A stretch of DNA of 64,000 nucleotides from Verrucomicrobiota bacterium (GTDB taxonomy: Bacteria; Verrucomicrobiota; Verrucomicrobiia; Opitutales; Coraliomargaritaceae). This document shows positions 25,354 to 32,867 of the stretch, in pieces; position 1 is the first letter of the stretch; every line of letters starts with the position of its first letter. The notes beneath the pieces were generated by a model. That model saw only the letters and a program-made list of their open reading frames with translations, ran no database searches and was not told the origin of the DNA. The position numbers and the translations under genes were made by a program. The stretch covers positions 1 through 64,000 of the forward strand of contig JBCBZJ010000005.1 in assembly GCA_039815375.1 (NCBI GenBank), read 5' to 3'.

Positions 25354-25431
25354 AAAAAAGGCCGCTCCAGATGGAGCGGCCTTCGTGCTTAAAGCTTTGT
25401 GTGCGGACGCCTGAGAGCAGGCGTCCCTACC
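25354..25431 (-). terminator. GTAG-REP plus intrinsic terminator following a gyrA-tail copy
   Basis: REP at 25405-25431; hairpin aggccgctcc/ggagcggcct with a 6-U tract on the minus strand; near-duplicate at 28214-28290. Confidence 0.8.
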
Positions 25432-25432
25432 T

Positions 25433-25695
25433 TTACTCCTCCGCTGGAGCTTCGCCGGACTCGTCATCACCCGCTTCATCCTCCTCTGATGCTATTACTT
25501 TCGAAATCCCGATAAGTTTGTCTTTATCGCCGAGGTTGACGCCTTGGGCAGTAGAAGTTTGAAGTTAGAATAGTGAAGAGGGAGATTTGGGCACGAGAAT
25601 GGCCCTTGAGGGTGAACATCATGATCTCGTCTTCGTCGGTGACGGAGATGGCACCGGCCACTTTCTCGGACTTAATGGCGATGATGCCGGAGCCG
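25433..25695 (-). pseudogene. gyrA: Orphan gyrA 3'-end copy (two segments)
   Basis: 25600-25695 is 92/96 nt identical to 30526-30621; 25433-25550 encodes AQGVNLGDKDKLIGISKVIASEEDEAGDDESGEAPAEE*. Confidence 0.92.
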
Positions 25696-25730
25696 TAGGG
25701 GACTTAGCGCCACATCTTGAAAGTTCTCAA

Positions 25731-29953: not shown

Positions 29954-30078
29954 TAATGTTTAGTTTGTTGTATGAATCCTAATGTTTCAATTAATCAGCA
30001 AGTTGCGTGTGCTTTTTACGAGAGTTATACGATTTCCTGAGGTATATTAAGTCGATTAATTCTGAGGACATATAAAAT

Positions 30079-30111
30079 AAGAATTCCTACTCAGCGGGAG
30101 TAGGAATTCTT
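30079..30111. terminator. Perfect 14-bp stem-loop downstream of gyrA
   Basis: aagaattcctactc / gagtaggaattctt. Confidence 0.65.
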
Positions 30112-30311
30112 GGAGATCGATTATGTGCTCAGTTCGGCGGGATATCCGCATATAACGATTGAATGCTATGGTTTTTGCTGATCGGCAAGCCTAAATCGAT
30201 AGGCTCTTTATGGTAGAACGGAGGCATGACCTAATGGTTCAAATGAGTTTGAATAAAGACTGGATCTAAAAAGAATGCAAGAGAATGCTTTTTATTCTGA
30301 TTCGGTGCAAA

Positions 30312-32867
30312 TTACTCTGTATTTTCTTCAGCTGAGCCTTCTGTCTCGGCGCTAGTTTCCGCAGATGCTTCGCCGCCATCCTCGGCATCGCCCGCTTCAT
30401 CCTCTTCCGAGGCGATGACCTTGGAAATCCCGATGAGCTCGTCCTTATCGCCGAGGTTGACGAGTTTGACGCCCTGGGTGGCGCGGCCGACGACGGAGAC
30501 GTCCTTGATCGGTGAGCGGACGGCTTGGCCCTTGAGGGTGAACATCATGATTTCGTCTTCGTCGGTGACGGAGAGGGCGCCGGCCACTTTTTCGGACTTA
30601 ATGGCGATGATGCCGGAGCCGCCGCGGGATTGGGTGCGGTAGTCTTCGAAGTTGCTGCGCTTGCCGAGGCCGTTGGCACCAGCGATGAGGAGCTTGGGAC
30701 GGACGTCCTCGGAACCTTCTTCTTGAACTGGCGGGACGATTTCGATGGCGACGACCTTGTCGTCGTCGGACTTCAGCTTGATACCACGGACGCCGCGGGT
30801 GGCGCGCCCCTGGTCGCGGAGGTCGGACTCGGGGAAGCGGATGGACTGCGCGTTGGAGGTGACGAGGAGAATCTCGTCGTTTCCATTGGTGAGTCGTGCG
30901 CCGATGAGGTTGTCGCCCTCGTCGATGTTGATCCCGATGATGCCGCCCTTGCGGTGGTTCTTGAAGTCGGCGAGCTTGGTCTTCTTCGTCACGCCCTTTT
31001 CGGTGGCGAGGACGATGGACTGTTCCGACTCGGTGAAGTCTTTGACGCAGATCATGGCTGCGATCTTCTCGCCTTCCTGCAGCTCAAGCACGTTGGCAAT
31101 AGCGCGGCCCTTAGCGGTGCGGCTGCCTTCGGGGATGTGGTAAACCTTTTCCACATAGACGCGGCCACTGTTCATGAAGCACATGATGTAGTCGTGGGTG
31201 GAGGCGGTGAAGAGGTGCTCGACAAAGTCGTCTTCATACTGGCCGGAGCCGATGACGCCCTTGCCGCCGCGTTTCTGGGAGCGGTATTCGTCGAGGGAGG
31301 TGCGCTTGATGAAGCCTTTGTGGGTGACGGTGATCATGCAGCCTTCGTTCGGGACGAGGTCTTCCATGGAGATATCGCCGTCGACAGCGATGAGCTGGGA
31401 GCGACGGGCGTTGCCGTATTTCTCCTTCATGACGCCAAGCTCGTCTTTGATCACTTCGAGGAGGCGAGACTCGTTTTCGAGAATGTCCTTCAGCTCGGCA
31501 ATCAAGGTCATGAGCTGCTGGTATTCATCCTCGATCTTGTTGCGCTCGAGGCCGGTGAGCTGGTAGAGGCGGAGTTCGAGGATCGCGTTGGTCTGGATCT
31601 CGGTGAGCGGGTATTTCTCCATCAAGGCGCGCTTGGCTTCGTCGCGGTTCTTGGAGGCACGGATGATCTTAACGAAGTCGTCGAGGTTATCGAGTGCGAG
31701 CTTGTAGCCTTCGAGGATGTGGGCGCGGGCCTCGGCCTTGCGGAGGCGGAAGGCGGTGCGGCGGTAGATGACGTCGCGGCGGTGGTCGATGTAGCAGCTG
31801 AGCATCTCTTTGATGTTCATCTGCTTAGGGCGACGGTTATCCAGCGCGAGTAGGATAACGCCAAAGGAGCTCTCGAGGGCCGTGCTCTTGTAGAGTTGGT
31901 TGATGATGACGCGGGGGATGGCACCGCGCTTGAGCTCGATCACGATGCGGGTGGTCTCGGTGGACTCGTCGCGGAGATCGGAAATGCCTTCAATGGCCTT
32001 GTCCTTGATCAGCTCGGCGATGCGCATGACGAGGGAGGCGCGATTTACATTATACGGAATCGCGGAGATGATGATCTCTTCCTTGCCCTTGCTTTCGACG
32101 ACTTCGGCGACGCCGCGGGTGCGGACGATACCACGACCGGTCTTGAGGTAGCTTTCGATACCGCTCTTACCATGAATGAAGCCGCCACCGGGGAAGTCAG
32201 GACCGGGGATGAGCTGGATCACTTCGTCGAGCTCGATCTTCGGGTTGTTGATGATGGCGATGGCCGCGTCGATGATCTCGTTGAGATTGTGCGGCGGGAT
32301 ATTCGTCGTCATGCCGACGGCGATACCGGTAGAGCCGTTCATCAAAAGGTTCGGAAGGGAGGCGGGGAGGACGGATGGCTCGGTCGTGCTTTCCTTGTAG
32401 TTGGGCACGAAGTCGACGGTGTCTTCGTCGATGTCCTTGAGCATGTCTTCGGCGATGTTCTCGAGCTTACACTCGGTGTAACGATAGGCAGCGGGGGAGT
32501 CGCCATCGATGGAGCCGAAGTTACCTTGCGGGATAATGAGCGGGTAGCGCATGACCCAGTTCTGCGCGAGGCGGACGAGGGTATCGTAAACGGAGGTATC
32601 CCCGTGCGGGTGATAGTTCTTGAGTACTTCCCCGACGACACCGGCGCACTTATCGAAGGGGCGGTTGTGAAGCAGGCCCTCACGCAGCATGGCGTAAAGG
32701 ATGCGGCGCTGAACCGGCTTGAAGCCATCGCGGGCGTCGGGGAGCGCACGGCTGACGATGACCGACATCGAGTAATCGATGTAAGCGGTCTGCATGATCT
32801 CGGTGATCGACGTGCCTTCTGCTCGCATGTGGTTAGGGGTGTTGGGATCTGTTGGTTGATCTGACAT
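30312..32867 (-). CDS. gyrA: DNA gyrase subunit A
   Basis: RALPDARDG, YHPHGD, AAYRYTE catalytic Tyr, GyrA-box QKRGGKG, acidic tail. Confidence 0.98.
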   Translation of the reverse strand: MSDQPTDPNTPNHMRAEGTSITEIMQTAYIDYSMSVIVSRALPDARDGFKPVQRRILYAMLREGLLHNRPFDKCAGVVGEVLKNYHPHGDTSVYDTLVRLAQNWVMRYPLIIPQGNFGSIDGDSPAAYRYTECKLENIAEDMLKDIDEDTVDFVPNYKESTTEPSVLPASLPNLLMNGSTGIAVGMTTNIPPHNLNEIIDAAIAIINNPKIELDEVIQLIPGPDFPGGGFIHGKSGIESYLKTGRGIVRTRGVAEVVESKGKEEIIISAIPYNVNRASLVMRIAELIKDKAIEGISDLRDESTETTRIVIELKRGAIPRVIINQLYKSTALESSFGVILLALDNRRPKQMNIKEMLSCYIDHRRDVIYRRTAFRLRKAEARAHILEGYKLALDNLDDFVKIIRASKNRDEAKRALMEKYPLTEIQTNAILELRLYQLTGLERNKIEDEYQQLMTLIAELKDILENESRLLEVIKDELGVMKEKYGNARRSQLIAVDGDISMEDLVPNEGCMITVTHKGFIKRTSLDEYRSQKRGGKGVIGSGQYEDDFVEHLFTASTHDYIMCFMNSGRVYVEKVYHIPEGSRTAKGRAIANVLELQEGEKIAAMICVKDFTESEQSIVLATEKGVTKKTKLADFKNHRKGGIIGINIDEGDNLIGARLTNGNDEILLVTSNAQSIRFPESDLRDQGRATRGVRGIKLKSDDDKVVAIEIVPPVQEEGSEDVRPKLLIAGANGLGKRSNFEDYRTQSRGGSGIIAIKSEKVAGALSVTDEDEIMMFTLKGQAVRSPIKDVSVVGRATQGVKLVNLGDKDELIGISKVIASEEDEAGDAEDGGEASAETSAETEGSAEENTE

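Follow-up and report, generated by a model that had tools for sequence, protein, structure and literature searches.

How does the 3′ end of an essential gene come to stand three more times behind that gene, each time after a different passenger gene? The question is raised by the window analysed here, 64,000 nt of DNA (positions 1–64000 of contig C12) from the 3.56-Mb, 66-contig genome of a Verrucomicrobiota bacterium (GCA_039815375.1, labelled G000), in which the intact gyrase gene gyrA is followed by three orphan gyrA 3′ ends, numbered tails 1 to 3 with increasing distance from gyrA. We think it probable that these tails are displaced ends left by homology-anchored additive insertion through host recombination, during which orphans were probably reused as a second recombination arm.

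Results

Three orphan gyrA ends lie behind an intact gyrA

The three orphan ends are real. Genome-wide blastn and tblastn searches found the gyrA 3′ end at exactly three further places, each of them on contig C12, downstream of gyrA and in its orientation, in agreement with a first-pass annotation of this DNA, whose gene order also stands (gyrA, a helix-turn-helix (HTH)-like and an ImmA-like gene, a tail, a tail-collar gene, a tail, a membrane protein gene, a tail and an AIPR gene). Blastn scores were 69.8, 59.9 and 179 bits for tails 1, 2 and 3, compared with at most 29.2 bits for 100 composition-preserving shuffles. The tails begin 132, 13 and 36 nt, respectively, after the stop codon of the cargo gene ahead of them, and these cargo genes have a GC content of 42–50% versus 59% for gyrA. 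An artefact of this assembly cannot account for the order, because in the Logan assembly of run X1 a single 9,976-nt unitig spans positions 23815–33500 at a depth of 12.3 with 0 mismatches and 3 gap letters; X1 is probably the source sample and so not an independent one, and the unitig is not long-read proof.

Tails 1 and 3 end in their own acidic tails and, as previously read, share a repetitive extragenic palindromic (REP) hairpin followed by a gyrA-type terminator hairpin (Table 1). The REP family has 16 copies genome-wide, and the terminator motif, found within 300 nt of the gyrA end in 21 of the 78 examined, is absent after the gyrA of this genome. Tail 2 had been placed at 27277–27404, which proved too short, as the tail starts ~60 nt earlier; it contains SPIKD..VV in degenerate form, lacks an acidic end and is not followed by a terminator of the gyrA type, limiting the earlier claim of a different acidic C-tail on each copy to tails 1 and 3. 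Tail 2 is the oldest-looking of the three. The 5′ borders of the tails fall at about codons 750, 786 and 795, and at codon 757 in the relative G017 described below, a variation that erosion could also produce. A promoter scan stayed at chance level.

A 9-nt deletion removing the codons KLV, which had been read as present in two tails and as a sign of their kinship, is present in all three. It sits on a 6-nt direct repeat and could therefore recur by slippage, and it is absent from both G017 tails, making it a weak kinship marker. The better marker is the spacer of tail 3, 54 nt of non-gyrA DNA that replaces 50 nt of gyrA, shifts the frame and has no second copy in this genome. Upstream of the spacer lies piece A of tail 3, for which the reported 92/96 identity to resident gyrA was reproduced (3 silent changes and one L-to-I change; longest identical run 30 nt). 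This match is less telling than it looks, since intact gyrA genes of other species are also 73–93% (mostly 85–93%) identical to piece A. A similarity to the spacer upstream of tail 1 was also tried and is not significant (86 of 1000 shuffles).

Changes in the tails are mostly silent

Silent and amino-acid changes were counted against resident gyrA in a 19-codon block, where 22% silent changes are expected by chance. Tail 3 has 10 silent and 1 amino-acid changes (p = 3e-6) and tail 1 has 8 and 6 (p = 5e-3), so the synonymous changes noted by the first-pass annotation in the conserved stretch amount to a significant bias for these two tails, though not for tail 2. The two tails of G017 show 11/0 and 14/0 (p = 7e-8 and 7e-10). 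As their changes are mostly silent, tails 3 and 1 appear to have diverged inside working genes, and their sequences identify them as probable ends of formerly working gyrA alleles. The nearest sampled allele is resident gyrA for both, at 46/57 identical positions for tail 3 and, in a tie, 43/57 for tail 1, the block being a conserved one.

Scarred tails recur in another genus

Within the family, 91 of 101 genomes matched the gyrA end, and the DNA behind gyrA was fetched for 78 of the 90 relatives among them (57 with ≥5 kb and 42 with ≥10 kb; the other 12 are outside the set). Searched with a DNA profile, one of the 78 had tails, G017, which belongs to a different genus; five family genomes with extra gyrA-end matches had no tails. 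Both G017 tails contain piece A and a spacer 48/53 identical to that of tail 3, with KLV intact. One of them, tail A, is 54/57 identical to the intact gyrA of G032 in the 19-codon block, and in a 66-nt comparison matches G032 at 63/66 positions versus 52/66 for the gyrA of its own host, indicating from the alignments that tails derive from other gyrA alleles. The REP cluster and terminator of tail A, in turn, align with the DNA after the intact gyrA of G111, a member of a third genus. A mini-tail 55 nt after G017 gyrA is a possible remnant and suggestive (2 of 1000 shuffles; nhmmer E = 0.32). In run X3, contigs matching the G017 gyrA end and tails have similar depths (6.8, 6.6 and 7.0).

Run X2, a neighbouring sample, yielded a 3,159-nt contig, known from match coordinates and 30-nt loose ends, on which 1,619 nt separate two tails. 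One has spacer-like letters upstream and begins where the deletion lies; the other matches the gyrA of G000 at 80/81 positions, yet ends like G017 tail A, and is by its sequence best described as a mosaic. The expectation that relatives would carry tails with other cargo was borne out in one of 78 relatives, G017, and in the neighbouring sample X2. A boundary near window position 30477 is common to tail 3, to the second X2 tail and to both tails of G017. The runs containing window DNA are marine metagenomes, with no RNA run listed among them, and all four runs belong to one study.

Searched as a pattern in the genome_contigs set (185,579 genomes), the spacer gave three matches, the two G017 tails and one Bacteroidota record that is probably an unrelated chance match; metagenome_contigs gave 0 matches. 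No viral contig with this gyrA end came to light: none of 39 candidate stretches from the protein search was confirmed, and two DNA patterns gave no such contig.

At the level of the order, 370 of 401 genomes matched the gyrA end, 8 with more than two matches, at a sensitivity that is low outside the family. Among the five order genomes listed in full, only G152, from another family, had orphans, three in number. In this 1-Mb genome (contig C4, L209 4886–13531), three decayed copies of the gyrA end plus its flank separate two large genes, of 784 and 934 aa, that are related to each other and run in the opposite direction, an arrangement not seen in 13 other genomes of that family. G320 has two full gyrA genes on different contigs.

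The anchor gene is foreign to its genus

We compared gyrA and rpoB trees of 19 genomes by approximately unbiased (AU) tests, with groups chosen after seeing the trees and rpoB plus genus labels as the reference. rpoB puts both G000 (97/99) and G111 (98/96) in their respective genera, whereas gyrA does not, and AU tests on gyrA reject the genus grouping of G000 (p = 4e-4 for all positions; 5e-3 for codon positions 1+2) and of G111 (p = 7e-6 and 2e-6). The gyrA of G000 is closest to that of G032 (86.3%, compared with 81.9% for rpoB), a member of another genus, and only these two of 21 genomes share a colinear, 87% identical 716-nt gap between gyrB and gyrA; the upstream flanking DNA of G000 is closer to its own genus. 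These phylogenies place G000 gyrA as foreign to its genus and suggest that gyrA crosses genus lines.

The GyrA acidic tail tunes DNA wrapping, and insertion had been proposed to swap the resident tail. Neither sliding identity nor segment trees resolved a swap confined to the 3′ end; gyrA is discordant over its whole length, as is the gyrB end. Between G017 and G072, gyrA differences jump only in the last bin, the variable tail. Since both length and sequence of the GyrA tail differ freely from one of the 78 relatives to the next, a swap of the acidic tail may be neutral.

The gyrB–gyrA gap is a second exchange site in its own right. It holds a GxxExxY gene and palindromic repeats in G000 and G032, short tandem repeats and a probably four-helix-bundle-like gene in G007, G017, G072, G111 and G030, and nothing in the other 14 of the 21 genomes. 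GxxExxY was considered as a homing driver and is not supported: the gap of G017, G072 and G111 holds a different gene or a remnant, and in G032 the GxxExxY gene is present while 7.8 kb of sequence shows no tail.

The accreted zone and its cargo

The distance from gyrA to the MFS gene is 20.9 kb in G000 and 1.9 kb in G002, another species of the same genus with the orthologous MFS gene, where gyrA and its terminator are followed by the MFS gene; with its single gyrA end, G002 represents the empty site. The accreted zone (Table 1) contains toxin–antitoxin pairs, a repeated module with a small open reading frame (ORF), a PEP-CTERM-like gene and a 1264-aa protein, and some of its genes have relatives near gyrA or near tails in G017, where the small-ORF module, a PEP-CTERM-like remnant, a PIN toxin gene and the 1264-aa protein have counterparts. 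The AIPR gene is read as an older layer of accretion; at position 25039, within it, the X1 Logan contig has 3 extra bases relative to the window.

Table 1. Positions of gyrA, its orphan ends and the surrounding features in the window
Feature	Position	Strand	Remark
gyrB	33584–36124	minus	
gyrB–gyrA gap, 716 nt	32868–33583	minus	with GxxExxY (PDDEXK_3) gene at 33130–33552 and palindromic repeats
gyrA, intact, 851 aa	30312–32867	minus	anchor; without the usual family gyrA terminator after it
Whole accreted zone, gyrA to MFS gene	9391–30311	not assigned	same interval in G002 is without it
Cargo 1a, 141 aa	29528–29953	minus	probable HTH regulator (weak label)
Cargo 1b, 264 aa	28544–29338	minus	HExxH protein, weakly CapP/ImmA-like
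Orphan tail 1	28291–28412	minus	final ~40 codons; lacks 9 nt; ends in an acidic tail and stop of its own
REP hairpin and gyrA-type terminator hairpin	28214–28289	minus	after tail 1
Cargo 2, 211 aa	27473–28108	minus	hydrophobic N-terminus and phage tail-collar-like domain; phrog_523, E = 7e-16
Orphan tail 2	27274–27464	minus	native middle; lacks the 9 nt; another frameshift and a stop; no terminator
Cargo 3, 467 aa	25731–27134	minus	predicted membrane protein of 42% GC, without an assigned family
Orphan tail 3, piece A	25600–25695	minus	96 nt, 92/96 identical to resident gyrA
Orphan tail 3, spacer	25549–25599	minus	non-gyrA, frame-shifting
Orphan tail 3, piece B	25433–25548	minus	9-nt deletion; own acidic tail and stop
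REP hairpin and gyrA-type intrinsic terminator	25357–25430	minus	after tail 3
AIPR/AbiU-like defence gene	23509–25260	minus	downstream of last tail

The cargo comes in units of one or two genes of 0.9–2.0 kb, with no restriction–modification family match among them and, by eye and without an attC model, no attC site after the three cargo stops. The labels "HTH-like" and "ImmA-like" given to the first unit are weak: no Pfam family passed the cut-off, while PADLOC gave capP at E = 9e-4 and ESM Atlas look-alikes of cargo 1 are HTH or phage regulators (0.90–0.94). By these weak labels, the pair is reminiscent of the immR-immA-int order of ICEBs1. Cargo 1b and cargo 3 have no relative in 100 family genomes, a homologue search with cargo 1b returned 1 near-identical protein only, and cargo 2 has weak, partial matches in 3 of 250 order genomes.

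Further along the zone, a 64–76-aa ORF that matches no known family and is followed by a hairpin occurs in five copies in the genome, confined to the accreted zone (23131–23361 and 18316–18510; partial near 17893–17955, 19628–19705 and 20944–21011). Its homologue search found 3 near-identical proteins only. The module occurs twice near a tail in G017 (L003 41–161 and 1099–1413), and a contig of run X2 appears to join it to a gyrA tail; beside it, a divergent HTH-like remnant overlaps 23325–23525. The interval 17091–20738 is a toxin–antitoxin cluster (PIN, MNT-HepT) interspersed with long palindromes that belong to the repeat family also found on either side of GxxExxY, and 21082–22821 encodes a 579-aa lysine-rich, coiled-coil-like protein with HExxH near its C-terminus and no family over the cut-off.

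When seven gyrA-downstream regions and the two G017 contigs were compared with the 78 relatives, matches of at least 55 nt linked only G000, G017, G072 and G111, apart from one same-genus pair. G017 carries an array of short genes split by attC-like palindromes (by eye, no model run; L002 ~1750–5000, L001 ~4450–6200 and L021), possibly an integrase-less integron array in the same zone, and the leader ahead of this array directly follows gyrA in G072. The first cargo behind G017 gyrA is a 500-aa RelA/SpoT-domain gene of 43% GC on the opposite strand (L001 6670–8172). In G111 (C31, L024 1–1423), an IS91-family (Y2) transposase and a small toxin–antitoxin-like pair lie within 1.2 kb behind the intact gyrA.

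No recombinase is found at the locus

In draft genomes, on which all these searches rest, the 13 tyrosine recombinase matches of G000, 11 of them over the cut-off, all lie off C12, a 146-kb contig, and no large serine recombinase or resolvase was found in the genome. None of the 6 tyrosine recombinase matches of G017 lies on its three relevant contigs, and a profile of 11 domains (leave-one-out control 31–195 bits) found none in the fetched gyrA-downstream loci. Of Y1 transposases, the genome has 3 matches, none on C12. The absence of a cognate integrase at gyrA, as first suggested, is thus upheld near every tail and in the fetched loci. The broader proposal of an integrase-free accretion hotspot on an essential gene is supported in part: the G002 interval, the recombinase-free contig, the tails with other cargo in G017 and X2 and the foreign gyrA support an accretion site anchored on gyrA, but an integrase that was lost or acted in trans would leave almost the same scar, and the site is not a family-wide hotspot.

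Discussion

A proposed model of additive insertion through host recombination

Taking these observations together, we propose that the tails arose by homology-anchored additive insertion. A donor fragment carrying gyrA and a new gene would pair with resident gyrA as the anchor, and its far end would join within the last ~300 nt of resident gyrA, initially through a microhomology (illegitimate) joint, whereby the donor end would complete gyrA and the old end, with its stop and terminator, would be pushed behind the new gene. The resulting gyrA–cargo–orphan block, having gyrA homology on both sides, could then enter other cells by plain double crossover, carrying scars such as the spacer between lineages while its distal part is refreshed from each recipient, and repeated rounds would build the stack. 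Reuse of the orphan as a second arm would explain both a dead scar common to genera with different, recently functional ends and the mosaic X2 tail. We infer all of these steps. ComEC is present in 5/5 genomes tested, which lends weak support since it is near-universal.

Several observations weigh against this model. Tail 2, with 9 silent and 16 amino-acid changes (p = 0.08), shows no significant silent bias. Piece A has also diverged silently between the spacer-bearing tails (6/1 and 5/2), which calls for extra conversion events, one dead inherited arm being insufficient. Tails are rare, at one of 78 relatives and 0 of 80 metagenome gyrA loci (the best 80 of at least 202 confirmed, 16 of them close relatives); those of G017 sit on small contigs unjoined to its gyrA contig, and all family carriers may stem from one study. 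The shared spacer boundary resembles a fixed attachment core. No cargo gene of the three tested turned up behind another intact gyrA: cargo 1b and cargo 3 had no hit in 100 family genomes, and the hits of cargo 2, in 3 of 250 order genomes, were weak, partial and taken without regard to their context. The AU groups are post hoc and rely on one reference gene and genus labels. The second arms measure just 60–120 nt at 70–95% identity, which is short for RecA, and homology-facilitated illegitimate recombination (HFIR) is, in a passage of PMC5361080, orders of magnitude rarer than plain homologous recombination.

Other routes to the same arrangement

The tails could instead be remnants of decayed site-specific elements resembling cis-mobilizable elements (CIMEs), with an attachment (att) core near the RATQGVKL codons and an element that restored the gyrA end; the spacer would then be an element arm, the 9-nt loss damage to the core, and the integrase deleted or supplied in trans. 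The common boundary near 30477 speaks for this route, as do the weakly labelled HTH-like and CapP/ImmA-like pair pointing at tail 1 and the 11 tyrosine recombinases elsewhere in the genome; precedents, so far as the relevant sections of these papers go, are icd/icdC with e14 (PMC13626634), CIME accretion (PMC5704250) and displaced tDNA fragments, which can carry small deletions (PMC4383910). We nevertheless judge it rather unlikely, as no recombinase lies near the tails or in the fetched loci, gyrA homology extends past the supposed core on its upstream side (tail 3 by 96 nt, tail 2 by its native middle), the resident ends of G000 and G017 differ where a common replacement end is expected, no viral contig carries this gyrA end, and the cargo units are one or two genes ending 13–132 nt from a tail. 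The foreign whole gyrA would also be left unexplained.

Movement of gene plus gyrA-end blocks by a small non-autonomous element or an HUH transposase (REP-associated tyrosine transposase (REP/RAYT), IS91 one-ended transposition or a recoded spare end) is improbable to our mind. REP hairpins do follow four tails, the genome has its three Y1 matches and an IS91-family transposase lies 1.2 kb behind G111 gyrA; however, REPs are scattered over 16 genomic copies while gyrA tails occur only at this locus, the same kind of REP cluster follows the intact, unduplicated gyrA of G111, the spacer has no second copy here and, across the 185,579 genomes, just the two G017 matches and the probably unrelated one, and C12 is free of Y1 transposases. 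Still less probable is a local tandem duplication in which copies of the cell's gyrA end later decayed and took in cargo between them, although resident gyrA is the nearest sampled allele (tied for tail 1), one deletion is common to all three tails and such a stack exists in G152. The G152 orphans look like local duplication because they include their own downstream flank and have decayed without silent bias (5/7, 4/10 and 4/10; p 0.18–0.51), in contrast to tails 1 and 3; at the present locus the tails differ in their acidic ends and have a terminator that is absent after resident gyrA and a spacer common to another genus. An assembly chimera of gyrA ends from co-occurring species, conceivable in a genome that appears metagenome-assembled and has several relatives in the same samples, has next to no probability given the single, mismatch-free unitig from a separate assembly, the 30-nt limit on identity between piece A and gyrA, and frameshifts and a spacer that are impossible in a working gyrA.

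Relation to known systems

The proposed additive insertion at gyrA resembles several described systems in part. Insertion with long target duplication (Furuta, Abe and Kobayashi 2010, PMC2853133), in the sections that describe it, involves small gene blocks of lower GC content, variable, site-unique direct repeats of >30 bp, some of which overlap a gene 3′ end, and no mobile-element genes, mostly in naturally competent species. The present locus likewise has site-unique direct repeats of >30 bp, an insert of <20 kb without mobile-element genes and an empty site in G002. The same sections report restriction–modification cargo and near-identical repeats (44/46, 417/423), whereas here there is no such cargo, repeats are 70–96% identical (43–46 of 57 nt in tails 1 and 3; 92/96 in piece A only), represent silently diverged alleles of an essential gene, are stacked three deep and carry a cross-genus scar. 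The locus is therefore not a member of that class as defined.

Orphan 3′ ends at Rhs and type VI secretion system (T6SS) effector–immunity loci have been attributed to HFIR (Kirchberger et al. 2017, PMC5361080); in the portions of that paper relevant here, a conserved upstream anchor undergoes serial displacement of 3′ parts, arrays move by homologous recombination without an integrase, and the variable 3′ part is itself the payload (toxin, immunity). A conserved upstream anchor that recombines between lineages is also found at gyrA, but this housekeeping anchor must keep an intact end, and the payload consists of unrelated genes between the ends. In the icd/icdC case, as sections of PMC13626634 describe it, a housekeeping gene is restored by an incoming 3′ end and a C-terminal pseudogene is displaced, with few, partly silent differences and the capacity to recombine back; e14 is a 15-kb prophage with site-specific excision at one point and one orphan, compared with three orphans, varied borders and no recombinase found here. 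Accretion of CIMEs (Guedon et al. 2017, PMC5704250) likewise leaves, in the part concerned, tandem cassettes behind a target, each marked by a target-end repeat, and additive flexible genomic islands share cassettes among marine species and genera, according to part of Lopez-Perez and Rodriguez-Valera (2016, PMC4898812). Their targets are mostly tRNA or tmRNA genes and the process is site-specific; the term gyrA is absent from PMC5704250. With no cognate tyrosine or serine recombinase at an att site in these draft genomes, the locus is on present evidence not an integrase-island member. No report of gyrA as such an insertion target was found in the main texts of open-licence PMC and bioRxiv full-text articles. 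What is new here is the cross-genus sharing of a scarred arm.

Significance

Displaced gene ends are usually credited to integrases at tRNA genes or to toxin loci, and here they lie on an essential replication gene. The case adds a derived marker, the spacer, that can be traced across genera, together with mosaic tails and independent evidence of an anchor gene that crosses genera, although its reach looks narrow at one of 78 family relatives. We put forward only tentatively, as one joint claim, that a dead gyrA end may act as a self-propagating landing arm on which host recombination alone installs, behind the gyrA of other species and genera, whatever gene has been trapped between gyrA and an orphan and so turned into an additive cassette, leaving a new orphan each time, with the spacer as a tracer of this relay through the marine Verrucomicrobiota community and each round able to bring a foreign gyrA allele and acidic tail. 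If such a double-crossover relay is true, island finders that require an integrase, such as Islander as presented in part of PMC4383910, would miss islands of this kind, and flexible islands would grow and spread without any mobile element.

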